In this document: piece by piece, positions 10,674 to 42,301 of the stretch
Layout: every line of letters begins with the position of its first letter
Position numbering within the stretch: position 1 is the first letter of the stretch
Source of the DNA: an uncultured Candidatus Poseidoniales archaeon
Lineage (GTDB): Archaea > Thermoplasmatota > Poseidoniia > Poseidoniales > Thalassarchaeaceae
Assembly (NCBI GenBank): GCA_963934015.1
Contig: CAWVWT010000001.1
Coordinates: forward strand, 120,574 to 184,573
Length of the DNA: 64,000 nt
Direction: 5' to 3'
The notes under the pieces: generated by a model
What the model was told of the DNA's origin: nothing
Seen by the model: the letters and a program-made list of their open reading frames with translations, nothing else
The model's database searches: none
Translations under genes and position numbers: made by a program

Positions 10674-10701
<28 letters not shown>
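9070..10701 (+). CDS. glgP: Alpha-glucan (maltodextrin/glycogen) phosphorylase, archaeal short GT35 type
   Basis: YSGGLGVLAGDH near the N-terminus and the PLP-lysine motif EASGTSGMKAAMNGV. The track ORF starts at GTG 9019 and the first ATG is 9070. It follows malQ with a 3-55 nt gap and is probably co-transcribed. Confidence 0.85.
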
Positions 10702-13792
<3,091 letters not shown>

Positions 13793-13796
<4 letters not shown>

Positions 13797-14593: not shown

Positions 14594-15818
14594 TGAGTCC
14601 TTGAATCAAGAACTTCTGAAAAATGATGAATAATATCACTACTGGAATGCTCACCAAAAGGGAGGCGGCGGCAAAGTCACCCCATGCTTGACCTGTAGAA
14701 GAAATGAGGCTGGCCAGACCAACGGGGAGTGTGTACATGTCGTTTGAAGTATTGAATGTCAAAGCCAGAAGATATTCGTTCCATGCCGCTAGGAAACTGA
14801 ACAAGGCGGTTACTGCTACCGCTGGAAGTGAAAGTGGCAAGATCACCCGCCAGAATACTTCGAATTGATTGCACCCCTCCAGGAGAGCGGCCTCTTCCAA
14901 TTCCCTGGGAACTGTATCAAAGAAGCCCTTCAGCATCCAAACACAAAGTGGCAACGCGGTCACTGAATATGCGAGAATTAGGCCGAGACTTGTATTCAGT
15001 AACCCCAATGATTTCATGACCATGAAATAGGGAACTAGAATGATGATTCCAGGGAACATCTGTACTAGTAAGAAGGCAAACATCGATCCTTCGCGTCCAG
15101 AGAAACGGAACCGACTGAAGGCATAGGCTGCTGGCACTGCAAGGGCGAGACCCATCAGGGTTGTACCGATGCTAACAATCAGTGAATTGCGCATCCATAT
15201 CCAGAAACTCGAATCCCCACCGAGCATCTTGGAGAAGTGCTCTCCTGTCCAATCAGAGACACCAATGTCCCCCCCAAGGATATTGCCGGGTGACATCGCA
15301 ACATCAAGAATCCAGAGTACAGGAAAGAGGATGAGCATGACTGCATGTAGGAGTAAGATGTGAGAGCCGATTGCCCCCAAACGTGGCGCTATACGCTTGT
15401 TTCGAGCCAAACCATCCTCAGCACCCTGCACTGATAACAAGCCCTTGGCCCAAGCCGAAATGACAGGAGATGAAAGCCACCAAAGTGCAAGTATAGCGGG
15501 TCCGACCAGCCACAGTGTCGACCATATGTCGATGACCATCCGCATTCCAGCAGCATAGTGAATGACACCGATGATTAGGACAAGACCCGCTTTGCCTATG
15601 GCCACATCCCGCTTCCATGTCTGCTCACCATTTGGTAACACCAACCAGAGGACGAGTAATGCAAATGCGCCGAGCAATGAAAGTTGAAAGGCCAGTGAAT
15701 CTTCACGAATCCATTCAATACTCGAAAGTAGGATGTTGACGCCGACTGCGACGGGTAACCACAGACGAAGTGTCGCGATTTCCTGTGGTTCATACCACCG
15801 CTGTGAAAGGGACTTCAT
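14571..15818 (-). CDS. CUT1-family ABC sugar permease (MalG-like) with an extra N-terminal ~130-aa, 3-TM extension
   Basis: C-terminal two thirds match MalG/UgpE-type permeases, including the EAA-like loop ...LEEAALLEGC. N-terminal hydrophobic segments are LWLPVAVGVNILL, LSLLGAFALLVLWLVL and LVLIIGVIHYAAGMRMVIDIWSTLWLVGPAILALWW. Confidence 0.82.
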   Translation of the reverse strand: MKSLSQRWYEPQEIATLRLWLPVAVGVNILLSSIEWIREDSLAFQLSLLGAFALLVLWLVLPNGEQTWKRDVAIGKAGLVLIIGVIHYAAGMRMVIDIWSTLWLVGPAILALWWLSSPVISAWAKGLLSVQGAEDGLARNKRIAPRLGAIGSHILLLHAVMLILFPVLWILDVAMSPGNILGGDIGVSDWTGEHFSKMLGGDSSFWIWMRNSLIVSIGTTLMGLALAVPAAYAFSRFRFSGREGSMFAFLLVQMFPGIIILVPYFMVMKSLGLLNTSLGLILAYSVTALPLCVWMLKGFFDTVPRELEEAALLEGCNQFEVFWRVILPLSLPAVAVTALFSFLAAWNEYLLALTFNTSNDMYTLPVGLASLISSTGQAWGDFAAASLLVSIPVVILFIIFQKFLIQGLSAGSVKG

Positions 15819-19124: not shown

Positions 19125-19182
19125 AGGAACACCGTATGTACCGACGAAAGGGTACCCGGTCAAGAAGGAATGGGAGCAAGGA

Positions 19183-19259
19183 CCCCACTCCGCCGAAGCG
19201 GAGTGGGGGCTCAGAGGGGGCACCCGAAGGGCGCCCCACACTGCCACCGTTCGGGTGGC
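19183..19259 (-). other. Three consecutive GC-rich stem-loops between the giant gene stop and the serB-like/ABC/amylase operon
   Basis: Stem-loop 1 (19183-19208): CCCCACTCCGC-CGAA-GCGGAGTGGGG, 11 bp perfect. Stem-loop 2 (19214-19237): GGGGCACCC-GAA-GGGCGCCCC, 9 bp with one A-C mismatch. Stem-loop 3 (19243-19259): GCCACC-GTTCG-GGTGGC, 6 bp. Confidence 0.6.
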
Positions 19260-19284
19260 CCCTGTGGTTATCTCTCAATTGTAC

Positions 19285-22200
19285 TCAGAACACTGCCTTC
19301 AAACTTGGCGGGTTGTACTGCGCTGCGAATGTCATCAAGATGACAGCGGTACCACCAGCTGGTGCGTACTGCAGTGTAACCTGTGCGTTCTCAATGGTCT
19401 CACCAGATGTTGGGTCAACCATGCGTATTCGGATCTCGTCAGAGGCTCCAAATCCTGCGGAACAATCTACGTTACAATCGATGCTATCCTTGTAGGTCAC
19501 CAACGCTGAGCTGCTGCTCGGAGCGAATCCGTACACGCCATCAGGGTTGGCCAAACTGGTACGCTCACTGTGAACTGTACCTGCTTCATCAGTCCATTGA
19601 ACAACAACATACACTGCCTGAGTGGCAAGTTCATTGTCGTGAGTTTGGACGTTGATGTTCCAATACAAGTTACCCTGTGGATCATCAATCACTGCTTCAG
19701 GACCAAAGGTCAAACGAGGAGTTGCCTTTCCGCCTGCATCTGAGGCTAGGCTGTTTGCCCAGACATAGATTACACCGGACAGGACCACAGTGATTGCAAC
19801 GAGTAGAATCGTTGCAATCACTGGGCTAACTGCCGCATCATCGTCGGAGAGGGACTCCATGAGTTCCTCTTCGTCTTCCTCTCGGCGGGAGCCCATGAGG
19901 AGAGCGCCAACAAAGGCGCCCACCAGACTCACTGCCATGAGGCCCGGGGCGAAGCTAGCAACCGAGGTTGCTGGGCGAAGACGTACCATCTGTGGTAGTT
20001 CCTGTGCCGTGTCGTCCGTGGTCATGTTGTTGTCCTCCCAGTTCTTCTCTTCAAGCACAGGTCGACGGATCGAGTTGTCGATGTAATCATCTGTGTGCGG
20101 GTTAATCGTTCGCACTTCGATGAAGGCTCGTACCTGCTCAGATGGGTTGTTCAGAGTCACGTATCCGTTGATTACTGTCGTCTCGCCAATACCTGGCACT
20201 TCACCAGCGTCCCAGGACAGTGTTATCTGTTCCTGAATCAGTGTTGGGTTGTCGTCCACGTAGAAGCGAACCTGCACATCGTGTCCGTAGTTGTACAGAC
20301 TTGGGTCATCACCAGTGTTGGTGATGATCACGTCGACTGGCACGCGCGTACCTGGTAGCACTGCATCAATGGTGTAGAAGTCAAATCCAGGTCGCTCGTT
20401 GTCAGGTTGCCCTGCGTTCAAGTTACAGTCACCAGCTTCTTCACAGAATTGGTAATCTGGTTTTGCTTCCTCAACATTCGTTACCTTGATGTGAATCGTC
20501 TCACGGATACTGCGCTGCTCGTAAACACCTGAGGGGCTCTGCGCGTAGTCGATGTGACTTGGCGCTGAAGCCGTATCGTGCATCCAAAGATAGACAGTAC
20601 AGTATTCACCACTCGCAGGTCGCGCCTGGTGTACACCACCATCGGCGACACCGTCACCGTCTGCATCCTGCAAGAAGTCAATCTCGGTGGTTGGAGCATT
20701 GGTTGCTGCATCATCAATCAGGTCGATTGAAATTGTGTCATCATCGTTGTCCACTGTAATCGAGAAGTAGTTCTCGTAAACACACAAGGATGTCTCTTCA
20801 ACTGACCACATCAACTGGTCAACCGGGTGATCGTTGTCAGCCATAAGGCGACTTAGATCCCAAGTCAAGTTGCTGGCGTCCTCATCGTCTTCCGTGACTT
20901 CCCACATCCAATCTAGTTCCATGTTGCCGTTAGCAACTTCAACGAATTGGTTGTTGTTAGCATCGAAGTCCAAGATTTGAGGCTGGTCGTTGACCGGGTT
21001 CACAATGAAGTTCACCGTTACATCCGATGCTTCCGCGTTAGCGTTTGCATTGTCTGTTAGACTGAGCACGATGTCACAGTCGCCACCGGCCTCGTTCAAG
21101 GTGTTTTCAGCAATCGTGAGTACGTTCGACCCAATGTCTGAAGCGAATGGCACACAAGTGCCCTCATCCTCAGTCCATGTGTAGATCTGTGGTACCGACT
21201 CTGTGTTCCAATCCGTCTGTGACTGCTCGTTCGCCATATCGACGACGTACGAGCGAGTTGCGTTGGACGTGTCACCAAGTTCCTTGGTGATGAGACCGTT
21301 GAAGTTCTCATCGTGGACGTTCAGGTTACCGTCACCGTCATCATAGAAGACTGGTTGACAGTCGAAGCGGTTCGTGTTACAGATCTCTGGTGCGTCGTTG
21401 ACGTTCCAGATACCGACTTCCATCGTCTGCGTTGCGCTGAGACCGTCACTGTCTGTGACAGTCAGCTGCAGGCGGTGGCCTCCGAACTGATTCTCGAGTG
21501 TATCAACACCCAATGTCTGACCAGCCAAGCTGTAATCATACGGTGTTGGGTAACTGTGAGAGTTCGTCGAAGCGTCTGTCACAGACCACATCAGACCCGA
21601 GGATGCATCCTGATAGTCGCTGCCCTTGTCGGTTAGCGTAATCGTATGCGATCCTGAATCTTCATCGTATGATACATCTACCAAGTTCTCGATGATTGGC
21701 TTGGCACGCATGATATCGATTGTGATATCCTGGTTCGTCGTCATCACCAGTGGTGCGACGGAGTCGTCCCAGTCCCAGTAGTCGCCTTCCGCGTTGCGGA
21801 CCTTGACCATGATCTGGTATGCGTGTGGGTCACCTGGAGCGCTACCTGTGCCAACGTAACTTCGCAATAGCAGCAGGTGGTCATCCAGTGTACCGTCAGC
21901 GAGGTCGCCTCCAACGAGGTTGAAGTTACCGAACTGACCGAAGGTCTGACCCGAGGTTGTTGTTGCATTGAATGGCTGTTCTGGGAACACGCCTGCAACT
22001 TGACCATCTTGGCCGAATGGGGAATCCCACTGTACCATTGCAATCCAGCGAACATCTTCAGTTGGGTTACCAAGGCAGTCCCATGGAACACGGAATTCAC
22101 TCACTGGAGTGGTCGTGTACGGGTTGCCCATGAAGATACTCGAGGTGATTTGCGGGCAACTTGAGGTCACATCGACCCAGTTACCTGTTGGCATGACCTT

Positions 22201-25200
22201 GCGCAGACCCCAGTTGTTGAGATCTTCCATCCACAGCATGTAGTCTGCCTTGATTGGCAGAGTGTGCTGTGAGTGCCAGTTGTCGCCAGTTGACGAACCA
22301 CCTGGAGCTGTGTCGAGGTAGAACAGACCATCCGTTGTCACGAAGGTTGGACCCACGAGTGCAACGAACATGTAGTTCGAATCCCATGTCACGCGCATGT
22401 GCGCCTGTGTGGTTGCGTTCACAGCAACTGCACCGGGCATCATGTCGTCGGCTTCGTTCAGCATGTTGGTACCGAGCCAATCCCAGAGGATACCATCAAC
22501 GGTGATGGTTCGGCCAGGGCTGCTTCGCCACGATGGGCTGACATACTCGGCGCGACCACCAGGCACAGCAACTTGCTCGCCTGTAGCGTAGTTGGTAGCC
22601 ATGGATAGGCTGCGGATGTACAATCCAACATCAGTGGCTGGGTTGCCCATGTGTAGAACGGTCAAGTCCAGGAGGTTGCCCTCGTGAACAATTGCGTCTG
22701 CATCGACAGTCAACTTGCTTGGCATCCACTGGCTAATCATGGAACCATTGTTGAGTACACCGTTACCGATACTGGTTACCGTTGAGAACGGACCTGCATT
22801 GATTTGTGTTGCAACGCCTCCACAGCTTCCCATGTTAGCTGCAATCCATGCTGGATCAGCTGAGTAACACGAGTAGGTGTCTTCCCACATGAGTGGGATT
22901 TCCATCAGACCATACAAGGGGTGATTGTAGTTGTGAATACCCGACATGTTCTCGATGGAGCCTGTAGCACCATTGATTGTCTTGAGGACTGTGTGTCCCT
23001 GAGCAAGACCGCCATTCCAACGGAAGTCGTCGTGGCCATCAGCAAGAACACCAACCGCAGCATTGACCGATAGTCCGGTCATGTCAAGGTCGTGGAATCC
23101 GCTCTCAGTCACAGCATTGAGACCTACACCGTAGGTTCCGTTGGCTACAACTGTTGCACCGTTCGTTGATACATCGACGTTTGTCACTTCAACAGCTGTT
23201 GCATCACCGAGGATGGTGGTGCCGCCTGCCATGTGCAGGTCACCGCCTTCCATAGCAAGACCAAGACCGTATCCAGTGACCATCACACCGTTCAGTGTGA
23301 TGTCGTCGCCGCTACCCAAGATATCGATACCAGTTGTCTGTAGGTTGTTACCTTGACAATCTGCGACATTCACTGAGCCAGTCATCGTCGTTACTGTCGA
23401 GCTGAAGTACGTGAAGTTGCCCGCATTCGTGAACTGATGCACGAAAGACGAACCGAGGTTCATCGTTCCGCTGTCCCAGCTCTCTGCTTGACCAGCATCA
23501 GATGTGGTCGTGTGTGGGGTGTTCGTACTACCATATGCACGAGATGTCCAGCGTACCGAGTCACCAGTACAGATACTGGTTAGGTGTGCTGGGCTGTAGG
23601 TACTCTGCTGGATGTCCACGTTGTGGATCCGACCTGCGCCGCCACCGAGACCGGTGTACACTGAGTTGTTGTCAGTAACCGTACATCCGTCGGAGTTGAC
23701 TGCGTTCATCACGGTCGATACCACGTTGTTTGCCATGAATACTTCATCCAAGCCACAGGCGTCTAGGTAGATACCAATAGCACTGGTTGGCAAACGGCCG
23801 GCTGAGAAGCCGATCGTGTTGTCATTGATGTAAACATCATTACCACTGGTAATACCACTAATTGCGATACCACCATCGGCATCCAGACAGGTATTACCCT
23901 CTATGGTTCCCGAACCTGCTAGCGCGTAGATACAAGCATGTGATGCATCTGAATCACCAGTAATATGGTTGTTCATGATGGCCCAATCTCGAGCACCGCG
24001 CATGTAGATTGGATTGTCAGAGGACAACGTGTTATTCTCGAGGTTGAGCCCGAAGACCGTGTAGTCCTGAGTGTATACCGTATATCCGCTCAGACTCGAC
24101 ATGGTGTTGCCGCTGACGATTGGATCGTGCGAGTTAGCATTGAGGTAGAACCACATGCAGAGGTTTGCACAATCTTCCATGCTGTTGTCACTAACTACCA
24201 GGTTTCGCTGACCGTTACCACCGTAGTAGGTGTTGGTCGCGTAGTAGTTGCTAGGTACGAATACACCAACACCACAGTTAACCATCGTGTTACCCGAGAT
24301 TACTACATCATCGTATCCAGCTGTCTGGATGCACATGTCATCGTAGTAAACCGAACTTGCACCGTTTGGAATGTTGGTTGCTGAGTCATAGTGGACCAAC
24401 AGACTGTTGGTCACTTCTAAGTCACCGTTGTTCTGGTAGTAACCACTGCCAGTTCCAATCGCTTCCAAACCGAGCAAATTGCTGTTGTTGATGTGGAAGT
24501 TACCGTAATTGGAGGTTCCAGAGTATCCTACACGGAAGTGACCCTTCACAGCACCCTTGTCACACATTGAGATGATTGTTGTGTCGTCCATGTATACGTG
24601 ACCCGTGTATGGGTATACTGTGTACATCTGGACCTGACCATTGGAACATCCCGTTGTGAAGACAGTGGAACCATTCAGCGAGACTGAACCTGATCCGATG
24701 TCGAAGTAATTGAACGGCGTGTCCATCTGAATGATCATGTTAGACATGTCATTTTCAGAGTTGTAGTAACCAATCTCATGAACATTGTCAACCGTGCGGT
24801 CACTTCGATAGTTCAAACCAGTACAAGCGGCCTGCAAATCGTAACTTGTCGTCGAATAGCTGTAACACGTACGCGCGTCAATCGATGCGGTCAATGCGGT
24901 GTTAGCCGTATTTCCTGGTGCGTCGCTTAGCGAGATTGTGTTCATTGCATATCGTATGTCAATGACCGAGCCTGATGTGTAGGCAATGGTTGCAATTGTG
25001 ACCAATTGGTAGCCTGCGAGGTTCGGTGATGTGATACCTGAACTGTCCTTCGACCATACGACGAAGGACATACCGATAATGTCACCATTGCTGTCAGTTC
25101 TACCAGAGTCAACTGCCATGTTGTCGGCATCCAGAATCTTAACTGGTGCATCGTCAACTCCGCTTCCATCAGCAGTGATTTGAATATCCAACGCACGTAG

Positions 25201-28200
25201 GCGAGTGAACTTCGACATGTCACTGGTCGTTACCTTGGATTCGGTGATATCACCTTCAAGGTAATCCATCCTTGCACTGCCACTCATGGCCACATCTTGC
25301 GCGTTACCAGTCATGGTTGTGTCAGACATCGACATCATACCTGAACCGTCGTGGGTAATACCCACGGCGTTATTGTTCAGATTCAATCCGTCAAAGCTCC
25401 AATCAGCATCGTTTGTAGCGAGGACCTTCAGACCACAGTAACCTGCGTTCTGGATGGTTCCACTCAAATCAAGATTCATCGACTTCGATAGAACAACACC
25501 GTCTTGCGACTGGTTGTCTAGGTCAACGTTGCTTAGAACCAACTTCCCACCTGCTGCACTGCCCATGCGGACACCGTAGCGGCCATCATCAACAGTGATC
25601 TGGTCCATGGTAGCACCTACGCTACCTGAGACGAGAATACCCTCATTCACCGGGTTGGTGATGGTGATATCACTGAAGGCACCGGATGCGATGTCGCCAC
25701 CGATATCAATACCAGTATCTGCACCGGTGATTTGGCCGTTACTGATATCTGCAGTACCGAAGTCACGACTGTAATCCTTACTCAATAGATCAGTAATCGT
25801 GCTGCCCGCGCGGACAGTGATGTCCAAGCGGTCTTGGTAGTAGTCTGCACCGTAGTGGACCATGTCCACGTACATGACAACCTGCTCGATGCTTGAGCTG
25901 CTGGTGTCAACAACCGGGTAAGTCATTCGATATCCTGCTGGCACTGGTGTTGCTGGACCGTATGCGTAACTCTGGCATACGTTGTAGCTACCCCACATTC
26001 CGTTGAATCCTTCAGGAGGAGCAAATGCTGTTCCTGCGTGGTAGAAGCTAGGCCAGTAACTACCCCAATACATGTATGGATAGTAGTTGGTGCTCGCCGT
26101 TACGCCAGGTACACTCTCGATTCGGAATCCGAATTCGTTCGGCTCGTTGTTGTAGTTACCATTCATTGTGTACGCTCCGCCGCCGTAGGCGACGAAGTAG
26201 TAGTAATACGAATACTGGTAGGAACCACCTGGGTTGTACTTGTAACCGTAAAGGTTGCAATCCCAAATCGGTGCACCACCGCGGGCGCCGCTCTCGTAAG
26301 TGGCGACACCGCCGGTACCCGATGCTGGGTCATTTGCGCTGTACGGATAGTAACCGGTTACACTCGAGTCAGTGACGTTGTTCAGGCCTGTGCCATCACC
26401 GTCATCGACTGCGATTCGCCAGCGATCTGTGGTCATGAAGTACTTACCGTAGTACGAACCGCGAGCTGGATCCGAGTTACCGCCACCATACACGATGTTG
26501 GTACCAAGTTGCACGTAGTTGTTGTTCTTCGCAAACGAAGTAATGTCAATTGCGTACGTGTTCCAACCTGCACTCTGACCGCTAAGGATGGTCGAGCGGT
26601 ACAGAGTTGGTAGACTCATACCACCATCGACGACCATACCGACTGTGTTGTCAGTCAGAGTAAATCCATCGATGGTTGGTGCTGCGTCAGTCACCTCAAT
26701 GCCCACTGCCGAGTTCTTGACAAGGACGTTTGAGAGGCTGCTCGCTGCCGTGTTCGTCATTCGAATACCGATACCCGAATTGACGTTTTGCACACCAGCA
26801 TTGTTGATAATCAACGTACCACCATCGACATCGATAGTTGCTGTGGATGCTGCAGCGTTTGGACTGCCATAGACAGTCGAACCGTTGCGCATCTCCACAA
26901 TGCCACCGTCGCCGACCGCAAGGCCGCCGTTCATGTCGCGGATTGAACCTGCATCAATGGTCAACTGACCATTGCTGGTTATGTCCATCTCCCACCCATA
27001 TACACTGGACTGAGCCTTGATGTGACCGAAGTCACCATCGTGCTCACTGATGAGCAACTCAGCACCATTTAGCAATGTGATGGTTGGATTGTTGGCTGAT
27101 GTAACGTTCATGCGTAGCGAAGTTCCCTGAAGGTGTACACTGCATCCGTCCAAGACCATGTCCGCGGACAAGGTGATGATTTGACGGGTGTAGGTGTAGT
27201 ATCCATTCAGTGACGATGCCGAATCGTTGTTGCTGAAGAACGTACAGTCCTTGGTTGCGCCACCGAAGTCCATCGGGAATGCCTCAAGCTGGAGGTAAAC
27301 GTGTGATCCAACCTCAAGAGGTAGGTCACTCGATGGGAAATCCGGGTTGTGGCTTGCTGTGTACCATAGGTCCGTTGGTGTCGTGACGTTCTGACCTGCA
27401 CCACCCGCTGCACGGAGGGTATGGTCAGTGTACGATGCCGAGGAACTGGTTGCACCAGTGTTGTCACGCTCGTAAAGGTCTGTGACTAGCCAAACGTTTG
27501 CTGCTCCAGCGCCATCAGTCCTGCTGGTGCCGATTTCGAACAATTCTGTGCCTGAGCTGTCGTGAACCGCTGCTGCAACGTTGTGGTTTGCCTGGAAGGC
27601 GTTACCACTGTTACCTGAACGATAAACTGAGACGGTTCCAACGCCACCGAAGTAAATCTTGGCGGAACTGGAGGCTGCGTCGACCCAGCAGACCGATGTG
27701 TCGGCTTCATTGTTGGAATCGAGACAATCGTTACCATCGAAGTTCACATCAATCAAGCGGATGTCACCGTTTGTTCCAGCGCTTGCAAGGTTATTGCCCC
27801 AGCTGGTCATACCTGTTATGGTCATCTCAGCGACTGTCAGAACACTGTTACGCGCGTACGCGTAGTTACTGTTGCTCGAGTCACCAGCCATTGTACCATC
27901 TGAAATGGTCACAACGTTGCTGCTAGCTGACGATGCGCAGTTTGCACTGACCCATGCGTCTTGAGAACCATCACCGAGATTTACATCACTGAGAGTTACC
28001 CTCCAACCACAACCATTGATTGTGATTCCGGATGCACCAACAGAGTCTCCAGAGACCATGTTTGAACTTGGTGCGGTACCCGACAGTTGTAGGGCGCCTC
28101 CAAGATCGACATTGTCCATGCTTGCTGGCTGTGTGCGTGCCATTGTAAGGCCGCCATCAGCGCTGACACCATCCATGGTCCATCCTGTTGCACCAATTGC

Positions 28201-31200
28201 TGGGCTGCTTGCGCCCGCAGGTGTTACAGTGTAACCATTCGAGTCACCCGTACTGTCGACTTCTTCCATGTGGAGGCTGTCGGTTGCGTGGGTTGTGGCT
28301 GCAGCAAGATAGTTGCTGATGTCTACATTGTATGCGTAGAAGTCAGTACCACTGGTTGCAGTTCCAGTCTGGGCGACGCCCGTACCGGTCTGCTGCCATG
28401 AGAATCCACTGCTAGCATCCACGGTGACGTTGGACAGCCATAGGCTGTCTGCCTCGCCGATGATACCGTTGACGGCTGCATTGGTAATGTCGACGTTTTC
28501 CATCACGATTGTTGAACCATCGCCCGTATTGACTGCGCCTTGGCCAGCGTATCCGTGCGTGTTACAATTAGTGGCGGAGCCACCAACCCAAGTTAGTGTT
28601 GCGTCATCTGGTAGATCGACACAGGAGTCAGCACTGTTTGAGATGCTGACACCGGATAGGTCGAATCCTGTACCTTGACCACTGCCGTGCTTGATTGCCG
28701 TTCCAACATTGTTGAAGGTAACATCACTCATTGTGAAGTTCCCAGCATTGCCGTTGTAGTGAGGGGCTGCGCCGTTGCGGCTGCCCGCACTGATGGCAGT
28801 TGTCAGGTTTTCGAAGTTCACGTGGGTGAACGTGTGGCGGTCATCATTGCCAGCACTGCATCCACCGTTGGTGAATGCTAGGCCCTGTGCATAGTTGGTA
28901 CCCATGTTGGTAATTGTAACCGGGTTGGTTGAGTTTCCATCAACCATCAACTTGTTGCACGCACCAGTAAACGCGATACCCTTGCCCTCAGCAATCTGGA
29001 CTTCAACACCAGGCATGATCGTTAGATCTGCACTGACGGATAGCCAGTCGCCGCTGGATGGGTTCACACGGATTGGGCTCTGTTCGATATCCCAAATCGT
29101 TGGTGTGGTAATGTCCGAGGTTACGTCCATACCTGATCCATCGAATGGAATCAGCTTCGAGCGGATACTGCACTCTGAACCAGAGTTGTAGTAGCAGTAG
29201 TATGCTGCGTAGTAGCCCCACCATGGTGCAAGATCGACGTTATTCACATACGTACCTGAACTTGGCAGGGTTGGCATGGTCGTTCCCCAGTTTGAGCTCA
29301 TCATCTGTGCACTGTTGGTTGAACTCGAAGTACTGAACTGCATTGCACCGTGGCGGATTGCGTGGATCTTGTGACCCTGCGTACCGTTGAAGGTGCTACC
29401 AAAGTATTCGAACTCGAAATCGTTTGGTAGGTCAATGACCGTACTGCAGTCACCGCGATACTGTGTGAAGTAACGTGTGCAGTAGTACGTGTATGGGTTG
29501 CCGTTGCTGCTGCCGGTAAATTCTTCGTTGTAGTTAAACAACTCAGTCATTCCTGCAGAGTACGTCTCGTAGCCATAGTCGTTGCCATCAGTAGCAATAC
29601 GGAAGTTATTGGCAAATGGATTTTGGCCACCAATGTATCCTGCTCCGCGCGTACGTAGTTGCTCACCAACATTGGCTGCCGGGTTTTGGAAGCCAATGTA
29701 CTGGTAATCGTAGTACGCGCTACTGCTCGTGTCATACTCGAATTCGACCTCGTTGGTGACATCATACAGGCGGACCTGATAATTGACATTGTAACCGGAG
29801 TTGAATCCAGCTGTCATGTCGTGCCACTCAAGAACGAAGATCTTGGTCGGTGTTGCGATGTCGTAGGTGAAGGAACTGGTGTTTTCCCAGTTGCCATTGT
29901 TGTCCACAGCGCTGATTGTGTATTCGACGGAGTTTCCACGGTCTGTACCGGGGATACTTGTCGACCACTTACAAGCAGTCATCACACAAGCACTGCGGGA
30001 TGAATCTGGTGTCATGGAACGTGTTGTCCATGCTGACCAAGAGCCCGCATCTGCATCGTAGATTCGATAGTCCATGGATGGACCGACTAGGCCGTCACCA
30101 TTGTCTGTTGTATTGGTATTCAGACCTACTGGTGGGTCGCCCGGATCGCCGATTGTCATCGACAACATACGGTCTTCATCAACATAGGTGTCCATCATAC
30201 CAGGGTGGTCAATTTCCGGTGGGAAAGTGTCCGGTGCTGGCTTGATTGAACTGACCTTGGAATTGACTTGCCATCCAGTGTTGACCTTGCCGTCCCATCC
30301 TGGGTTGGACCAACCGTTCCATGCGTAGTTGTACTGGTAGTAGTAGTACGTACCATAGCATGGGTTGGTGTATGTCGAACCTGAATAGGTCGAACGAACG
30401 AACATAATTGGGTTGTTGTTCGTGTTGATACAGAACAAGTTGCGGTTTGCGCTGTTCAGGTTGTATGTTGCGTTCCATGAGAACGCACCGAAGTAACCGG
30501 TGATGTCACCAGGGATTGCAACCTTAACGTAGCCGTCATCTGTGCTGCCGTAGTCTAGACTGGTGTAAACTGTACCTGCACCTTGTGGTTGCTCGATACC
30601 GTTGCCACTCGAAGCCTCATAGCCCATGACGCCCCATCCACCGGATGCGGTGCCATCATGGTACCAGATTACGTCGTGACCGGGACCATCCTTGGCATTC
30701 ATAGCCATGCCAGGGACGTTTACCTTGTCCAAGTTTGCTTGGCAGGTCGTCGATGTGCATACACGTGTTGTGCCTGGGTAGTATCGTAGATCAAGTTGTG
30801 CACTCGTAGAGAAGCAGGACAGAGAGCCCATGCCACAATCCGTTGTGTCGTATTCCATGTGATACTCACGGCTTGGCTCGTAGTAGGTCAACTGCCAGTC
30901 GTAATAGCGCTGTGCACTGTAATACGAGTAGGAGTTCCATCCACTTGCCTTCACTTGCCACTTGCTGTCGCCATCGGCTGCATTGTCGATGGATTCAATC
31001 TCGTAGATCCAAGGTGAACTTGGGTGTGTCTGCATGTTGCTTGGGATACCTGTTCCACCGGCTGGTGTTGTGCCAGTAGTACCCGATACACCACCGTTAG
31101 GTGGGGCTGGGGAGTCACGGTATGCCCAGTAGTATTCCACTTCCGTTGTACCAGTCGCCGGAGCAGACTGGGCTGGGATTGTGGCCTTGAAGTTGCAGGT

Positions 31201-33090
31201 AAGACCTGCTGTGCAGGTACCGAGCGTAGTTGCACTAACGCCGTTCCATGAACCGCCATCAACACGGTAGTACAGGTGGGGTGCTCCTGCACTTGTGGTG
31301 TTGACACCGCTTGCATCGACTGCGCTCATGTACATTGTTCGTGCACCATCGAGGTAGGTGGTCTTACCATCGAACCCAACAGCGTCTGCAATTGGAGCCG
31401 TGGTGTCTGATCCACCTGTGTATGTAATCTCAAGATGAGGCTTGTACGCTGCGCTGGACTGGCAACCGTAGTAGGTGTAGGTGTTCTGAGTACACCAATA
31501 CCACATTGGAGAGTTTCCAGAGGAACGGACAGCGAGACCGAGAATGTTACCGCTGCTGCCTGCACCATTACCGTCAACCGCATCCTGAACATCGGACTCA
31601 CCATTCGAATTCATTGAAATCGATTTGATGCTTCCTGCGTTGTAACCGTAGTAGTAACCAGGGTCACTGATTGTGGTTGAAGCAGATGATGCTGCAGAGT
31701 TTACTGCATATCGGTGGATGTACATACCGGAGCTGTAGGTGTAACTTGCAGGGTCAATCATTGTGCTGCTCTGTGAGTTGCCGCTCTTCATGACTGCAAC
31801 TGTGAAGCTGCGTGAACCAGTTCGGTAACGACCGACGTGGTTCTCAAAATCGACACCTGTCACTGTTGCACCGGATGGCATGGTGTTTGCCAAGTTGAAT
31901 CGGTGAACTGCTGTGCGCTCATAGTGCGAGTACGAAGTCGAACTCGTGCATGTGCTAGCACCGCCACTACCGGTTCCCTTGCAAGTATAGGTGATGAACG
32001 AAGTTGAGTAAGCTCGCTCATAACTGTAAGAAGTCCAACCGTAGTTGACCGTGTACTTGTAGGAGTAATAGGTCGTTGCAGCTGTTACATCGATTGTTGG
32101 GTCGATCATAATCGGGTAAGTACGGTTCTCATCCATCAGCCACTCCGAATCAATCGAAGTGGTGATTTGGACGTGTTCGCCGATTTGCATAATGAAATAT
32201 TGACCAATACCTGGTAGAGCATCTGCATCGGATTCGTAAACCAGAGGAGCTGGAACTGTTACAAGCAGTTCTCCAGTCTCCACGTTTCGAATTTCAAACT
32301 GCTCATCTGTCTTCAGCACTGCACCCTCTTGTAGAGGACTTGTGCCTTCGAAGACGGAATATCCGTGTGGAAGAAGCATTTCTTCCTGCAGACCAAGCCA
32401 GCCATCAAATTCCTGACCGAAGAACGGCTGGTCACGAATGACCAAGTTCTGCTTGACTTGTGTGCTGGTCACCGTGTAATCCAGAGCAATGCCCTGGCCC
32501 ATCGGATAGCGTAGCACATTGCCAGCTGACTGTACAGGCTCTTCTGTTTCGTCGAGTTCATACATCATCGGATTTGACATGTCGCTCTGCATTTGCACAA
32601 CGACAGGGTTGATACCCATACGGATGGCATCGATGTTGTCATCGACTTGAATTACCACACCGTTATTCATATCAGCCTCGAAGTAAGTGTCGAAGGTGTT
32701 TTCAGTCACCGACCAACCATTTGCTTCCGATTCGATGTTCAGGTCGATCTCTTGCCACGACCCATCATCACCAAGGTAGTGGATTGGATCAGTGGTTACA
32801 ACTGCAACCTTACCCTCGTCCGTCACGTACGTCTTGGAGGTCGCAGTTCGACTTCCGACGAGTTCATTTTCGTCAGCATAGCCAAACTCGGTGAAATCCA
32901 CCGCTGCATATTCCTCCACGTTGAGAGCAAACATATCCACCGCATCATTTGCTTCTGCTTCATCAACCGATGTGGCTGATACAGCGTCGCCTGCAGGTGG
33001 TACCGCTTGGGCCCAACTCATTCCTATCATCAATAGCGTGAGCAACAGCCAACTGCCGCCCAACACCTTCTTGTTTTGTTTTGTCACCAT
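19285..33090 (-). CDS. Giant (~4600 aa) secreted cell-surface protein with parallel beta-helix-type repeats, Tyr/Asn/Thr/Gly-rich regions and C-terminal cadherin-like (VNDxP) repeats. A TM anchor with acidic tail runs on into the pilin-like module.
   Basis: A single stop-free frame spans 13.9 kb. The likely start is ATG 33090 (MVTKQNKKVLGGSWLLLTLLMIGMSWAQA signal peptide); the track start at 33261 is a TTG with a non-signal extension. Beta-helix-like repeats include NAVGITHDGSGMM. Cadherin-like hallmarks are LTVTDSDGLSATQTMEVGIWNVNDAPE and VNPVNDQPQI. The C-terminus has ..FAPGLMAVSLVGAFVGALLMGSRREEDEEEL.., then pilin. Confidence 0.8.
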   Translation of the reverse strand: MVTKQNKKVLGGSWLLLTLLMIGMSWAQAVPPAGDAVSATSVDEAEANDAVDMFALNVEEYAAVDFTEFGYADENELVGSRTATSKTYVTDEGKVAVVTTDPIHYLGDDGSWQEIDLNIESEANGWSVTENTFDTYFEADMNNGVVIQVDDNIDAIRMGINPVVVQMQSDMSNPMMYELDETEEPVQSAGNVLRYPMGQGIALDYTVTSTQVKQNLVIRDQPFFGQEFDGWLGLQEEMLLPHGYSVFEGTSPLQEGAVLKTDEQFEIRNVETGELLVTVPAPLVYESDADALPGIGQYFIMQIGEHVQITTSIDSEWLMDENRTYPIMIDPTIDVTAATTYYSYKYTVNYGWTSYSYERAYSTSFITYTCKGTGSGGASTCTSSTSYSHYERTAVHRFNLANTMPSGATVTGVDFENHVGRYRTGSRSFTVAVMKSGNSQSSTMIDPASYTYSSGMYIHRYAVNSAASSASTTISDPGYYYGYNAGSIKSISMNSNGESDVQDAVDGNGAGSSGNILGLAVRSSGNSPMWYWCTQNTYTYYGCQSSAAYKPHLEITYTGGSDTTAPIADAVGFDGKTTYLDGARTMYMSAVDASGVNTTSAGAPHLYYRVDGGSWNGVSATTLGTCTAGLTCNFKATIPAQSAPATGTTEVEYYWAYRDSPAPPNGGVSGTTGTTPAGGTGIPSNMQTHPSSPWIYEIESIDNAADGDSKWQVKASGWNSYSYYSAQRYYDWQLTYYEPSREYHMEYDTTDCGMGSLSCFSTSAQLDLRYYPGTTRVCTSTTCQANLDKVNVPGMAMNAKDGPGHDVIWYHDGTASGGWGVMGYEASSGNGIEQPQGAGTVYTSLDYGSTDDGYVKVAIPGDITGYFGAFSWNATYNLNSANRNLFCINTNNNPIMFVRSTYSGSTYTNPCYGTYYYYQYNYAWNGWSNPGWDGKVNTGWQVNSKVSSIKPAPDTFPPEIDHPGMMDTYVDEDRMLSMTIGDPGDPPVGLNTNTTDNGDGLVGPSMDYRIYDADAGSWSAWTTRSMTPDSSRSACVMTACKWSTSIPGTDRGNSVEYTISAVDNNGNWENTSSFTYDIATPTKIFVLEWHDMTAGFNSGYNVNYQVRLYDVTNEVEFEYDTSSSAYYDYQYIGFQNPAANVGEQLRTRGAGYIGGQNPFANNFRIATDGNDYGYETYSAGMTELFNYNEEFTGSSNGNPYTYYCTRYFTQYRGDCSTVIDLPNDFEFEYFGSTFNGTQGHKIHAIRHGAMQFSTSSSTNSAQMMSSNWGTTMPTLPSSGTYVNNVDLAPWWGYYAAYYCYYNSGSECSIRSKLIPFDGSGMDVTSDITTPTIWDIEQSPIRVNPSSGDWLSVSADLTIMPGVEVQIAEGKGIAFTGACNKLMVDGNSTNPVTITNMGTNYAQGLAFTNGGCSAGNDDRHTFTHVNFENLTTAISAGSRNGAAPHYNGNAGNFTMSDVTFNNVGTAIKHGSGQGTGFDLSGVSISNSADSCVDLPDDATLTWVGGSATNCNTHGYAGQGAVNTGDGSTIVMENVDITNAAVNGIIGEADSLWLSNVTVDASSGFSWQQTGTGVAQTGTATSGTDFYAYNVDISNYLAAATTHATDSLHMEEVDSTGDSNGYTVTPAGASSPAIGATGWTMDGVSADGGLTMARTQPASMDNVDLGGALQLSGTAPSSNMVSGDSVGASGITINGCGWRVTLSDVNLGDGSQDAWVSANCASSASSNVVTISDGTMAGDSSNSNYAYARNSVLTVAEMTITGMTSWGNNLASAGTNGDIRLIDVNFDGNDCLDSNNEADTSVCWVDAASSSAKIYFGGVGTVSVYRSGNSGNAFQANHNVAAAVHDSSGTELFEIGTSRTDGAGAANVWLVTDLYERDNTGATSSSASYTDHTLRAAGGAGQNVTTPTDLWYTASHNPDFPSSDLPLEVGSHVYLQLEAFPMDFGGATKDCTFFSNNDSASSLNGYYTYTRQIITLSADMVLDGCSVHLQGTSLRMNVTSANNPTITLLNGAELLISEHDGDFGHIKAQSSVYGWEMDITSNGQLTIDAGSIRDMNGGLAVGDGGIVEMRNGSTVYGSPNAAASTATIDVDGGTLIINNAGVQNVNSGIGIRMTNTAASSLSNVLVKNSAVGIEVTDAAPTIDGFTLTDNTVGMVVDGGMSLPTLYRSTILSGQSAGWNTYAIDITSFAKNNNYVQLGTNIVYGGGNSDPARGSYYGKYFMTTDRWRIAVDDGDGTGLNNVTDSSVTGYYPYSANDPASGTGGVATYESGARGGAPIWDCNLYGYKYNPGGSYQYSYYYYFVAYGGGAYTMNGNYNNEPNEFGFRIESVPGVTASTNYYPYMYWGSYWPSFYHAGTAFAPPEGFNGMWGSYNVCQSYAYGPATPVPAGYRMTYPVVDTSSSSIEQVVMYVDMVHYGADYYQDRLDITVRAGSTITDLLSKDYSRDFGTADISNGQITGADTGIDIGGDIASGAFSDITITNPVNEGILVSGSVGATMDQITVDDGRYGVRMGSAAGGKLVLSNVDLDNQSQDGVVLSKSMNLDLSGTIQNAGYCGLKVLATNDADWSFDGLNLNNNAVGITHDGSGMMSMSDTTMTGNAQDVAMSGSARMDYLEGDITESKVTTSDMSKFTRLRALDIQITADGSGVDDAPVKILDADNMAVDSGRTDSNGDIIGMSFVVWSKDSSGITSPNLAGYQLVTIATIAYTSGSVIDIRYAMNTISLSDAPGNTANTALTASIDARTCYSYSTTSYDLQAACTGLNYRSDRTVDNVHEIGYYNSENDMSNMIIQMDTPFNYFDIGSGSVSLNGSTVFTTGCSNGQVQMYTVYPYTGHVYMDDTTIISMCDKGAVKGHFRVGYSGTSNYGNFHINNSNLLGLEAIGTGSGYYQNNGDLEVTNSLLVHYDSATNIPNGASSVYYDDMCIQTAGYDDVVISGNTMVNCGVGVFVPSNYYATNTYYGGNGQRNLVVSDNSMEDCANLCMWFYLNANSHDPIVSGNTMSSLSGYTVYTQDYTVFGLNLENNTLSSDNPIYMRGARDWAIMNNHITGDSDASHACIYALAGSGTIEGNTCLDADGGIAISGITSGNDVYINDNTIGFSAGRLPTSAIGIYLDACGLDEVFMANNVVSTVMNAVNSDGCTVTDNNSVYTGLGGGAGRIHNVDIQQSTYSPAHLTSICTGDSVRWTSRAYGSTNTPHTTTSDAGQAESWDSGTMNLGSSFVHQFTNAGNFTYFSSTVTTMTGSVNVADCQGNNLQTTGIDILGSGDDITLNGVMVTGYGLGLAMEGGDLHMAGGTTILGDATAVEVTNVDVSTNGATVVANGTYGVGLNAVTESGFHDLDMTGLSVNAAVGVLADGHDDFRWNGGLAQGHTVLKTINGATGSIENMSGIHNYNHPLYGLMEIPLMWEDTYSCYSADPAWIAANMGSCGGVATQINAGPFSTVTSIGNGVLNNGSMISQWMPSKLTVDADAIVHEGNLLDLTVLHMGNPATDVGLYIRSLSMATNYATGEQVAVPGGRAEYVSPSWRSSPGRTITVDGILWDWLGTNMLNEADDMMPGAVAVNATTQAHMRVTWDSNYMFVALVGPTFVTTDGLFYLDTAPGGSSTGDNWHSQHTLPIKADYMLWMEDLNNWGLRKVMPTGNWVDVTSSCPQITSSIFMGNPYTTTPVSEFRVPWDCLGNPTEDVRWIAMVQWDSPFGQDGQVAGVFPEQPFNATTTSGQTFGQFGNFNLVGGDLADGTLDDHLLLLRSYVGTGSAPGDPHAYQIMVKVRNAEGDYWDWDDSVAPLVMTTNQDITIDIMRAKPIIENLVDVSYDEDSGSHTITLTDKGSDYQDASSGLMWSVTDASTNSHSYPTPYDYSLAGQTLGVDTLENQFGGHRLQLTVTDSDGLSATQTMEVGIWNVNDAPEICNTNRFDCQPVFYDDGDGNLNVHDENFNGLITKELGDTSNATRSYVVDMANEQSQTDWNTESVPQIYTWTEDEGTCVPFASDIGSNVLTIAENTLNEAGGDCDIVLSLTDNANANAEASDVTVNFIVNPVNDQPQILDFDANNNQFVEVANGNMELDWMWEVTEDDEDASNLTWDLSRLMADNDHPVDQLMWSVEETSLCVYENYFSITVDNDDDTISIDLIDDAATNAPTTEIDFLQDADGDGVADGGVHQARPASGEYCTVYLWMHDTASAPSHIDYAQSPSGVYEQRSIRETIHIKVTNVEEAKPDYQFCEEAGDCNLNAGQPDNERPGFDFYTIDAVLPGTRVPVDVIITNTGDDPSLYNYGHDVQVRFYVDDNPTLIQEQITLSWDAGEVPGIGETTVINGYVTLNNPSEQVRAFIEVRTINPHTDDYIDNSIRRPVLEEKNWEDNNMTTDDTAQELPQMVRLRPATSVASFAPGLMAVSLVGAFVGALLMGSRREEDEEELMESLSDDDAAVSPVIATILLVAITVVLSGVIYVWANSLASDAGGKATPRLTFGPEAVIDDPQGNLYWNINVQTHDNELATQAVYVVVQWTDEAGTVHSERTSLANPDGVYGFAPSSSSALVTYKDSIDCNVDCSAGFGASDEIRIRMVDPTSGETIENAQVTLQYAPAGGTAVILMTFAAQYNPPSLKAVF
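19288..19860 (-). CDS. PilA-type archaeal type IV pilin-like module (191 aa), in frame with and read through from the giant upstream ORF
   Basis: Internal ATG at 19860 preceded by purine-rich GAGGAAGACGAAGAGGAACTC. The sequence MESLSDDDAAVSPVIATILLVAITVVLSGVIYVWANSL closely matches Haloferax PilA prepilin N-termini (..[32 protein letters not shown]..). A ~150-aa beta-rich domain follows. Confidence 0.5.
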
Positions 33091-33423
33091 TCTAGATACC
33101 CCAGAGTGTCCTATGAACAGATGTTCGACGTTCTGACGCAGATATAACCGTATGGGTGCAAACTCTTTGATTATCCAATTCTGTTCGGTAAACTGCGTAG
33201 GAATTATTGAGTGCCTGAAATGCCCAATAATTAGTGGTACAAACAATTTGTAACAATCCAAAAGATGAGGGGGGTTTCCAATGGCAATTACAAAATAAAT
33301 GATGATTTGAACGAATTAGAGGGAATTAAATTAATCACTAATCCGGCTCGCAGTAAGCCAGATTACCTCGCGAATAATGTCGGAGCTTCGGGTTTTCCAG
33401 ATCATATTCGAATTACCTGAAAC

Positions 33424-36772: not shown

Positions 36773-36819
36773 TTTACAGTCCTCCCTCACAGTGGGTGCT
36801 TCGCCACAGAAAAACTTTG

Positions 36820-41548: not shown

Positions 41549-42247
41549 CTATTCCTCTTCTCCAATACGACGATCTTCAGTGATTCGACCGTCGTGCATG
41601 ACCAGTACCCGAGAGCAACGATCAGCAATCTCAGAATCGTGTGTCACGAGGAGTAACGTAACCCCGTGTTCAGCATTCAAACTCAACAATAAATCAATAA
41701 TTTCATCGCTGGTTTGTGAATCGAGGTTTCCGGTCGCCTCATCAGCAAAAATCACAGCAGGGTCATGCACAAATGAACGGGCAATCGTGACACGCTGCTG
41801 CTGTCCACCGGACAACTCAGAGGGTAAATGCCCCTCTCGATCTGCCAACCCAACCGCATCTAGAGCAGAAAGGGCGCGTTCACGGGCCTCACGAGGGGAG
41901 CATCCAGCCATCAATAGTGGTAATTCGACATTCTCCACTGCAGTCAATACTGGTAAGAGATTGAATGACTGGAAGATGAAACCCAATTGTGATCCACGCA
42001 ATGCTGTGAGTTCATAGTCGGACATCTGTGACAATGCCTGACCGTGAATAAAAACATCTCCTGCCGAAATTTCATCTAGCCCTGAAAGGCAATTGAGCAG
42101 TGTTGTCTTTCCACAACCACTGGGACCCATGACAGCAACCATTTCGCCGGGTTTCAGTGATACGCTAACCTTGCGAAGAGCTTCAACCCGGTTTGTACCG
42201 GTTTCGTATACCTTCCACAATTCACGTGCTTCGAGTACAGTCGTCAT
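41549..42247 (-). CDS. ABC transporter ATP-binding protein, MacB/LolD type
   Basis: Start at ATG 42247 (MTTVLEARELWKVYETG...). Walker A GPSGCGKTT, signature LSGGQQQRVTIARS, Walker B IFADEATGNLD. The track ORF has a 55-codon non-conserved upstream extension. Confidence 0.88.
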   Translation of the reverse strand: MTTVLEARELWKVYETGTNRVEALRKVSVSLKPGEMVAVMGPSGCGKTTLLNCLSGLDEISAGDVFIHGQALSQMSDYELTALRGSQLGFIFQSFNLLPVLTAVENVELPLLMAGCSPREARERALSALDAVGLADREGHLPSELSGGQQQRVTIARSFVHDPAVIFADEATGNLDSQTSDEIIDLLLSLNAEHGVTLLLVTHDSEIADRCSRVLVMHDGRITEDRRIGEEE

Positions 42248-42301
42248 GACTTCCTGTGGGTGGAGCAGGGATATAACACTCCGTCTTGCAGCAGACCGCT
42301 G

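Follow-up and report, generated by a model that had tools for sequence, protein, structure and literature searches.

Two questions are raised by the minus-strand gene described here: whether the reading frame of a giant surface protein truly runs through its own membrane anchor into a complete type IV pilin, and, if so, what becomes of a prepilin signal that lies thousands of residues from the N-terminus. The window, by which we mean the whole 64,000-nucleotide stretch of DNA analyzed, was thought in the original prediction to be haloarchaeal, with Haloquadratum strains as relatives. It instead belongs to Marine Group II (MGII)/Poseidoniales, family Thalassarchaeaceae, within the MGIIb lineage. 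Poseidoniales are the dominant and most abundant planktonic archaea of the sunlit surface ocean.

Layout of the giant gene

A mechanical listing of the open reading frames in the window gave a minus-strand frame at 19285..33261, with 4,658 codons counted from a TTG. The true start is probably the ATG given in Table 1, which leads into a Sec-type signal peptide (MVTKQNKKVLGGSWLLLTLLMIGMSWAQA↓V, the arrow marking a cleavage site here and below), and the N-terminus of the homologue P0125 begins likewise. Translation of 19285-20400(-) produced 371 aa (...SVASFAPGLMAVSLVGAFVGALLMGSRREEDEEELMESLSDDDAAVSPVIATILLVAITVVLSGVIYVWANSLA...KAVF and the stop) that were stop-free throughout, confirming the proposed read-through from the anchor into a complete pilin. 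The order in frame is a transmembrane (TM) helix, RR and an acidic loop, and then a 181-aa archaeal type IV pilin; the ATG at 19860 encodes Met181 of the translated stretch, and the 191-aa tail agrees with its original description. A hydrophobicity scan of the giant protein showed only three hydrophobic segments, namely the signal peptide, the helix before the loop (TM1) and the pilin helix. No Pfam domain was matched in the ectodomain when the whole protein and 900-aa pieces of it were searched, and no internal repeats were found in the protein. The last ~145 aa of the ectodomain, a beta-sandwich with a conserved RRPxLE..NW.NN motif, are a constant companion of the pilin module. An Rfam search with the hairpins 3' of the stop codon returned a sub-threshold match only.

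Table 1. Features of the giant surface-protein gene in window coordinates
Feature	Position	Strand	Remarks
Whole giant surface-protein gene with C-terminal pilin module	19285..33090	-	4,601 aa from probable ATG 33090
Sec-type N-terminal signal peptide MVTKQNKKVLGGSWLLLTLLMIGMSWAQA	33004..33090	-	Hydrophobicity scan; shared N-terminus in P0125
Ectodomain	19963..33003	-	About 4,350-4,400 aa; no Pfam match, no internal repeats
Juxtamembrane motif V-A-S-F-A-P	19945..19962	-	V, S, F, P invariant in homologues
TM1 GLMAVSLVGAFVGALLMG	19891..19944	-	Putative stop-transfer helix; small-xxx-small residues
Predicted cytoplasmic loop SRREEDEEELMESLSDDDAA	19831..19890	-	RR start, strongly acidic, D-D-x-A end (-4 to -1)
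Loop ATG	19858-19860	-	Not conserved
Predicted class III cleavage site A↓V	between 19831 and 19830	-	
Pilin alpha1 helix VSPVIATILLVAITVVLSGVIYVWANSLAS	19741..19830	-	
Pilin globular domain	19288..19740	-	151 aa; Ig-like beta-sandwich
Stop codon	19285-19287	-	

Conservation of the fusion in Poseidoniales

The fusion was intact in 80/80 species-representative Poseidoniales genomes, a set of GTDB species loci covering both MGIIa and MGIIb, and in none of the 80 species did a stop codon lie between the giant part and the pilin. Upstream of AVSPVIATI, the open frame either reached the edge of the locus, over as many as ~3,580 codons, or ended at stops 1,640-2,348 aa away. There were 534 matching stretches in the species-representative genomes, and intact gene calls of 4,372-5,559 aa were present in independent assemblies; an exact look-up of the window protein in the contig index gave no entry. 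These data show a single real gene that is conserved throughout the order Poseidoniales. It encodes the largest protein in these streamlined genomes and appears to be nearly universal in the order. Gene fission, with the giant part and the pilin separated, was found in no case, an argument that the covalent link is important in the precursor.

It was suggested originally that a stop-loss mutation might have merged two genes, and the same junction could in principle be an assembly or sequencing artefact. Among the gene calls there are indeed many “flagellin-like” fragments of 200-650 aa, which public records name “flagellin-like protein” or “type IV pilin”, and the giant gene is in pieces on two contigs, both nanopore+pilon assemblies and the only ones in which it is fragmented. 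These short calls are contig-end fragments or come from frameshifted nanopore assemblies. The junction has one and the same architecture in all 80 species genomes, which come from many laboratories and assemblers; an independent assembly with 93% identity (P0001) also has the fusion intact, and five cluster entries, drawn from JGI and ENA assemblies, carry one identical 5,559-aa homologue. These loci and entries refute an artefact or a recent, strain-specific stop loss, the probability of which we regard as negligible.

Identity of the C-terminal tail and its relatives

The tail scored 37.7 bits against Pfam Pilin_N (PF07790; cut-off 25.2, E 3.9e-9) and 40.8 bits against TIGR02537 (cut-off 20). 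Both scores are far beyond chance, and the assignment of a Pilin_N prepilin N-terminus to the 191-aa module in the original prediction is upheld. Sequence matches of the tail in the PDB were Natrinema PilA2 and a Haloferax pilin, and pilin-like motifs in the six frames of the window were confined to this tail. As in solved archaeal pili, the tail combines an N-terminal alpha-helix with an Ig-like beta-sandwich, and it has a small residue (A/G/S) at -1, acidic residues at -3/-4 and a hydrophobic helix of ~25-30 residues. The pilins of Haloferax volcanii (PilA1-6; 8fj5) and Natrinema (PilA1/PilA2) belong to the same HMM family, Pilin_N (DUF1628), and share the ..DDxA↓VSPVI(G/A).IL(M/L)VAITV.L helix and the fold. 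They differ in that their signal directly follows an N-terminal basic leader of 7-37 aa, whereas that of the giant protein is preceded by ~4,410 residues of a Sec-exported protein. The giant protein has no N-terminal class III signal with a short positively charged leader; its pilin motif begins at residue ~4,419 of 4,601, behind the Sec signal peptide, ectodomain and TM1. All hairpin-type matches were similarly located 170-195 aa from the C-terminus, compared with residues 5-45 for canonical matches.

Canonical prepilins are also encoded in the clade (P0140, P0181, P0120 and about 100 more). Their cleavage context and helix, MKNEMKNDEA↓VSPVIATILMVAITVVLAGVLYVWA, are nearly identical to those of the fused module, but they are free-standing genes, with products of 160-830 aa that have a Met and basic residues of their own. 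The helices differ at diagnostic positions (LAGVLYVWA in the canonical prepilins versus LSGVIYVWA in the fused module), and outside the helix no similarity was detectable between the fused globular domain and the small canonical pilins. The same module also closes unrelated proteins, namely one beta-helix protein of 2,785 aa and proteins of 1,816-2,410 aa with a short basic loop (SRRRKKGRGKDDDA↓VSPVIA). Based on marker genes, two contigs with such unrelated carriers are from non-Poseidoniales Thermoplasmatota.

Other systems join pilin modules covalently to large functional domains at the surface, such as Streptococcus sanguinis PilB/PilC and, with class III signals, the sugar-binding proteins of the Sulfolobus bindosome, but there, as generally understood and on bioRxiv 10.64898/2026.04.22.720090, the pilin helix comes first and the functional domain behind it is retained after processing. 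In the giant protein the order of these modular type IV pilins, an N-terminal pilin helix with the extra domain C-terminal to it, is reversed: the ectodomain lies ahead of the helix, and processing would cut it off. In the chaperone-usher tip adhesins FimH and PapG a single polypeptide does carry the adhesin at its N-terminus and a pilin domain at its C-terminus, although the resemblance is of architecture only: their assembly system is unrelated, works by donor-strand exchange and involves neither a hydrophobic helix nor a prepilin peptidase. The non-filament archaellin-like proteins FlaF/FlaG had no sequence-level match to the module, and FlaF differs in being a separate small protein of archaellum operons.

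The module can be summarized as V-x-SFAP, TM1, R/K, a charged loop of 17-23 aa, D-[DE]-x-A↓VSPVIATIL(M/L)VAITVVLSGV(I)YVWA and an Ig-like pilin domain of ~150 aa. Across 81 sequences, position -1 was invariably Ala, -3 was D/E in 79 and -4 was D in 72; the loop kept its length range throughout, and SFAP was spaced 42 +/- 1 aa from the cleavage site. Residues +1 to +17 were invariant apart from M/L at +10. Constraint at the RNA or DNA level is ruled out as the cause because the synonymous codons of the invariant helix vary freely. Column identity was 0.92 in the pilin helix and 0.85 in V-x-SFAP, versus 0.56 in TM1. Among 109 canonical N-terminal prepilins, -1 was A in 96, G in 10 and S in three, and -3 was E/D in 101. 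Classical class III signals usually have K/R at -2, a position that was variable both in the fused module and in the canonical pilins of the clade. In 8fj5, the chain sequence has 145 aa and 133 residues were modelled, a gap that would fit the loss of 12 residues ending ..NDDSA ahead of VSPVIG.

The anchor had been likened to a PGF-CTERM archaeosortase signal. Such signals, like PEP-CTERM and LPXTG, have a short invariant motif just outside a TM helix followed by basic residues, and they are portable among unrelated surface proteins. In PGF-CTERM (TIGR04126) substrates, PGF and a TM helix come with a short basic tail that closes the protein; here, however, the motif is V-x-SFAP, ~200 further residues follow the helix, and an NCBIfam scan at E up to 1 gave no CTERM match. 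The archaeosortase reading was rejected on these grounds. The related claim that all other exoenzymes in the window use the same anchor held in part, as TM helices with basic and acidic tails are present in them; V-x-SFAP itself adjoined the pilin module in every one of its occurrences (83/83).

Proposed processing of the hairpin and competing explanations

The true in-frame adhesin-pilin fusion, with the pilin helix as a second TM segment forming a hairpin, was the first of the readings offered originally and is supported by these data. On the strength of the sequences compared, we cautiously favor, with somewhat more credence than doubt, internal class III cleavage of this hairpin precursor, the products being a giant protein anchored by its TM helix and a pilin-like subunit. 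TM1 would act as a stop-transfer helix, leaving RR and the acidic loop in the cytoplasm, and the pilin helix would re-insert N-in/C-out and return the pilin domain to the outside. PibD/FlaK-type aspartyl peptidases act at the cytoplasmic face of the membrane, and the helical hairpin would bring a canonical class III (prepilin) cleavage site to that face; the giant protein and TM1 would take the place that a short basic leader has in ordinary prepilins. Cleavage behind the invariant Ala by a class III signal peptidase could then yield (i) the giant surface protein as a type I protein anchored by TM1, with an acidic cytoplasmic tail of ~20 aa, and (ii) a mature pilin-like subunit with the N-terminus VSPVI. 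Because the pilin is without a basic leader of its own, the fusion would supply its membrane targeting and orientation; it would also fix a 1:1 ratio of the two products and co-localize them. Their fate would probably be a membrane-proximal complex, or the subunit may serve as a minor (non-major) pilin. Any role in a filament must be minor because a 4,400-aa leader for each major-pilin subunit is implausible.

The genes for such processing and assembly were sought nearby. No class III peptidase and no type IV filament ATPase or platform genes turned up in Pfam scans of the window or in the +/-10 kb flanks examined; neither Peptidase A24 nor type IV filament machinery was present in the flanks of the loci L001/L002 or around the canonical pilin genes, and loci totalling 1.44 Mb yielded nothing in a crude GxGD scan. 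FlaHIJ loci are described in all MGIIa and in only a few MGIIb subclades (PMC6336850, PMC6864105, PMC6461757). The helix is equally invariant in MGIIb, so polymerization by FlaHIJ cannot explain its conservation in all lineages.

The reported absence of FlaHIJ from most MGIIb (PMC6336850, PMC6864105), set beside the full conservation of the module in the MGIIb loci L003-L037, is a point for a hairpin that is never cut. The two helices would then be a permanent anchor, with neither cleavage nor polymerization, and the pilin-like Ig domain, next to the membrane at the base of the giant protein, would bind the envelope or dock in the manner of FlaF. The small-xxx-small residues in TM1 suit helix packing, and the 371-aa AF2 model (pTM 0.73) agrees, weakly, with the pilin domain and the last ectodomain being packed together, both on one side of the membrane; confidence was low for both helices and the loop (pLDDT 49-82). 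What this leaves unexplained is the invariant Ala at -1 with D/E at -3 and -4, as in canonical prepilin sites, and the near-identity of the second helix to free pilins while TM1 drifts. We consider a permanent anchor unlikely, if the most serious of the alternatives. It is clearly less probable still that the pilin is made also, or mainly, alone, through initiation within the loop or from an internal transcript, with the read-through incidental; indeed we think this very unlikely. A Met is present in the loop in 74% of the 81 sequences, which are not independent, compared with about 41% expected from composition; GAGG lies ~8 nt ahead of the loop ATG in the window, and an abundant transcription start site has been reported at some MGII DUF1628 gene (PMC5069720). 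However, the Met shifts in position (-7 in 35 sequences, -2 in 16, others elsewhere) and is missing in 26%, and no TATA-like hexamer or AT-rich peak occurs within 450 nt upstream in 81 loci, which speaks against a conserved internal start or promoter. The purine run, read originally as SD-like, is accounted for by the Glu/Asp codons of the conserved acidic loop. A product begun in the loop would moreover have a purely acidic leader, whereas the 109 canonical prepilins average three basic residues, and the absence of a separating stop codon in all 80 species also tells against independent initiation.

A more specific version of the favored cleavage reading has the released subunit stay on the membrane-proximal domain of the giant protein and join a filament of small canonical pilins as a minor or tip pilin, the module serving as a sorting signal by which the pilus receives a giant adhesin. 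The fused helix is about 90% identical to those of the small (160-180 aa) canonical pilins and so compatible with co-assembly, and the layout parallels FimH-type tip adhesins. The MGII “flagella” loci are without chemotaxis genes and have been proposed to act in adhesion (PMC6461757), and high transcription of an MGII DUF1628 pilin gene is on record (PMC5069720), although this gene was not found in the supplement of that paper. After cleavage, however, the giant protein would remain held by TM1; the assembly genes, reportedly absent from most MGIIb, were not seen nearby, and a persistent complex would have to be postulated. We view this version as rather improbable. A little less doubtful, though still speculative, is the broader proposal that V-x-SFAP, TM1, the charged loop, the class III site and the pilin make up a new, portable C-terminal sorting module that couples Sec-exported giant proteins to the type IV filament system. 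The released subunit, retained on the membrane-proximal adhesin domain, would enter a pilus or short pseudopilus, by which the giant protein would be carried or positioned.

To our knowledge, class III (prepilin) signals are regarded as strictly N-terminal, and prediction tools and surveys of archaeal filaments look for them only there. A literature search outside subscription journals found no description of a C-terminal in-frame class III signal or of such a fusion, in agreement with the architectural novelty first claimed for it. An internal class III site that is order-wide, under strong purifying selection and reached via a TM hairpin would widen the substrate range of prepilin peptidases and would mean that the family has been overlooked or mis-annotated. 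If the sorting-module proposal is true, MGII would display their largest surface protein via a mechanism not seen in any cultured organism. The module itself is short and self-contained.

A single gene for a giant ectodomain and a pilin

The giant protein, Sec-type signal peptide included, is encoded by a single gene. Translation of 19285-20400(-) (...SVASFAPGLMAVSLVGAFVGALLMGSRREEDEEELMESLSDDDAAVSPVIATILLVAITVVLSGVIYVWANSLASDAGG...KAVF-stop) is stop-free throughout, and translation probably begins at the ATG at 33090, which gives a protein of 4,601 aa opening with MVTKQNKKVLGGSWLLLTLLMIGMSWAQA↓V. A hydrophobicity scan of the whole protein revealed three hydrophobic segments only: the signal peptide, the membrane helix before the loop (TM1) and the pilin helix. 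The tail scored 37.7 bits against Pilin_N of Pfam (cut-off 25.2) and 40.8 bits against TIGR02537 (cut-off 20), and no other pilin-like motif occurs in any of the window's six frames. The ORF listing, the translation and these family matches confirm the original prediction that the surface-protein frame runs without a stop into a pilin. The haloarchaeal origin that had also been assumed is incorrect. The G+C content is ~49%, the homologues bear the names Candidatus Poseidoniales, Poseidoniaceae or Thalassarchaeaceae, i.e., Marine Group II (MGII), and the nearest genomes are MGIIb 'Thalassarchaeum' MAGs (L005, L006). The ectodomain is conserved and syntenic across Poseidoniales, with a HAD hydrolase and an ABC transporter coming next. 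It had zero Pfam matches, whole or as 900-aa pieces, and self-BLASTP found no internal repeats, which is unusual for a giant adhesin-like ectodomain.

Coordinates of the features (window positions unless a locus from another genome is named)
Feature	Coordinates	Remarks
Giant gene, ORF	19285..33261(-)	4,658 codons counted from TTG
Ectodomain	19963-33003(-)	~4,350 aa
Three tandem G+C-rich hairpins	19170-19262(-)	between giant-gene stop and HAD hydrolase gene
Solute-binding protein (SBP_bac_8/SBP_bac_1) + ABC permease domain (BPD_transp_1)	15815-18412(-)	one 865-aa ORF
Same fusion	L001 12410-15010	
MacB/FtsX-type permease	36905-41536(-)	1,543 aa
ABC ATPase	41549-42412(-)	
Proteins ending in TM helix, basic residues, acidic tail	3191-7666(-), 10674-13796(-), 33512-36790(-), 60271-63630(-)	
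Beta_helix/NosD protein with module	L085 1134-9491	2,785 aa
Tandem paralogues with module	L086 2579-9811, 10001-17029	2,410 and 2,342 aa
Regions with large canonical Pilin_N proteins	L083 979-5843, L087 10001-15027	

Two explanations that would remove the fusion, an assembly artefact and a recent stop loss merging two genes, are excluded by the relatives of the tail. With the last 371 aa as query, 165 relatives were found, dozens of which cover 93-100% of it at 33-93% identity, that is, the last ectodomain, TM1, loop and pilin together. One genome per GTDB species was scanned for stretches encoding relatives, which yielded 534, the best 80 loci including both MGII families. In 80/80 of these Poseidoniales loci there was no stop between anchor and pilin; 5' of AVSPVIATI the frame continues as far as the locus edge (≤ ~3,580 codons) or a stop 1,640, 2,303 or 2,348 codons away, and the tail runs 172-208 aa to its stop. 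When the 82-aa hairpin was searched exhaustively with HMMER, the hits fell into two classes. The whole hairpin was matched 170-195 aa from the C-terminal end in proteins of 4,372, 4,539, 4,572, 4,595, 4,640 and 5,559 aa; the helix only was matched in ordinary pilins, at residues ~5-45. Five cluster entries, drawn from JGI and ENA assemblies, carry one and the same 5,559-aa sequence. Taken together, these open frames and full-length homologues from independent assemblies therefore rule out both explanations. The giant gene lies in adjacent same-strand ORF pieces in only two contigs, both nanopore+pilon, probably through frameshift errors. One MAG, CALBIL01, carries two differing versions of the fusion gene (L043 and L061); either each genome has two paralogues or the bin is mixed.

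Internal initiation within the loop is not supported. The ATG at 19860 proposed as a separate pilin start is present, as Met181 of the translated stretch; across 81 sequences a loop Met has no fixed position and is missing in 26%. The supposed SD-like purines are Glu/Asp codons, and no TATA-like hexamer or AT-rich peak was found within 450 nt upstream at 81 loci. An abundant transcription start site is reported at an MGII DUF1628 gene (PMC5069720), which may or may not be the giant gene.

Module anatomy and likeness to free pilins

A short charged loop lies between the two helices, RR follows TM1 directly, and the tail has a pilin fold; AF2 predicted helix 152-183 (TM1), a loop, helix 193-220 and a confident beta-sandwich. 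In 81 sequences, the SF motif lies 42 +/- 1 residues from Ala(-1). Each invariant residue uses several synonymous codons, and the constraint is therefore at the protein level. In 1.44 Mb of MGII DNA, the SFAP+TM motif was accompanied by a pilin in 83/83 occurrences and never stood alone. The anchor had been described as shared with the other exoenzymes of the window. This holds for the TM/basic/acidic tails of four other large exported proteins; V-x-SFAP and the pilin were found in none of the four. In one of them (10674-13796), the anchor is preceded by a long (PE)n linker.

Anatomy and conservation of the module in 81 sequences
Element	Composition	Mean column identity
Last ectodomain		0.48
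V-x-S-F-A-P	V, S, F, P invariant	0.85
TM1	18 aa; small-xxx-small pattern	0.56
R/K	directly after TM1	
Loop	17-23 aa; ~9.5 acidic, ~2.3 basic residues	0.50
Cleavage context	-4 D 72/81; -3 D/E 79/81; -2 variable; -1 Ala 81/81	
Pilin helix	V-S-P-V-I-A-T-I-L-(M/L)-V-A-I-T-V-V-L-(S/A)-G, essentially invariant	0.92
Globular domain		0.47

The cleavage context is not distinguishable from that of free prepilins. The 109 canonical N-terminal prepilins from the hairpin search read M(K/N)NE(M/N)(K/R)N(D/E)EA↓VSPVIATILMVAITVVLAGVLYVWA and obey the same rules (-1 A 96, G 10, S 3; -3 E/D 101/109). Sequence matches in the PDB were PilA2 of Natrinema (..SDEERAVSPVIG) and 8fj5, a pilin of Haloferax volcanii (..NDDSAVSPVIG). 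Of the 145 residues in the 8fj5 chain sequence, 133 are modelled, a difference that fits the loss of 12 residues ending DDSA and hints at actual processing at DDxA↓VSPVI. Canonical N-terminal Pilin_N proteins of the clade, some with an LTD domain, often reach 350-830 aa; their genes neighbor those of other secreted proteins, not assembly genes, which suggests that class III signals are widely used by surface proteins.

Proposed topology and processing

TM1 would halt transfer, leaving the loop in the cytoplasm, and the pilin helix would insert N-in/C-out, so that the class III site would face the cytoplasm. PibD/FlaK-type peptidases cut on that side. Cleavage is predicted to yield a giant protein still anchored by TM1, together with a mature pilin-like subunit; a major-pilin role is implausible with a 4,400-aa leader. 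The main rival is that the hairpin stays uncleaved and the pilin serves as a FlaF-like foot domain. Against this, cleavage is best supported by the tight conservation of Ala(-1), the acidic -3/-4 and the helix, which equals that in free pilins, alongside the drift of TM1. The importance of linkage is best argued from two points: the gene is split in no species, and a loop-initiated product would lack a basic leader. No peptidase or assembly gene was found near the giant gene in the window, the L001/L002 flanks or the 1.44-Mb loci scan, or around canonical pilin genes. Published surveys report FlaHIJ from every MGIIa but from few MGIIb (PMC6336850, PMC6864105; also PMC6461757), and module conservation in MGIIb therefore cannot depend on it.

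A portable module and the neighboring genes

On other contigs, unrelated proteins terminate in this module, and the SFAP-TM1-loop-pilin unit is therefore portable. The protein built of Beta_helix/NosD repeats ends in ..TPGFVPS-TM-QRRREPEAAPVRLDEDDEA↓VSPVVATILLVAVTLVL; its contig has 68% G+C and an S12 protein closest to Thermoplasmatota MAGs. Further proteins, of 1,228 (possibly partial) to 2,410 aa, have a short, basic loop (SRRRKKGRGKDDDA↓VSPVIAIILMVAITIVLAG), which by its residues looks exactly like a normal prepilin leader joined to TM1. The tandem paralogues among them, with a glycine-rich ALK_LTK_GRD-type domain, both end in SFAP-TM-basic loop-pilin, on a contig of 46% G+C that is Thermoplasmatota-like and non-Poseidoniales by PGK similarity. 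The tail is a bona fide Pilin_N pilin in a position without precedent, as a portable C-terminal module. In the literature searched and in the reviews consulted on MGII genomics and on type IV filament systems of archaea, neither the giant protein nor a class III signal at an internal or C-terminal position is mentioned, in agreement with the novelty originally proposed. Public annotation calls fragments 'flagellin-like protein' or 'type IV pilin'.

The three hairpins downstream (loops of 4-5 nt: CGAAC, UUCG, UUCG; MFE -67.7 kcal/mol; z -3.4 vs shuffles) matched no Rfam family at gathering score; they may act as a terminator or stabilise the mRNA. From its mechanical GTG start (19247) the HAD ORF runs through them, and translation probably starts in reality at the ATG near 19125 (MSIKAVCFDCDGV). 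The unusually long MacB/FtsX-type permease, which adjoins the ABC ATPase, lies two genes upstream of the giant gene, with ORF 33512-36790 between.
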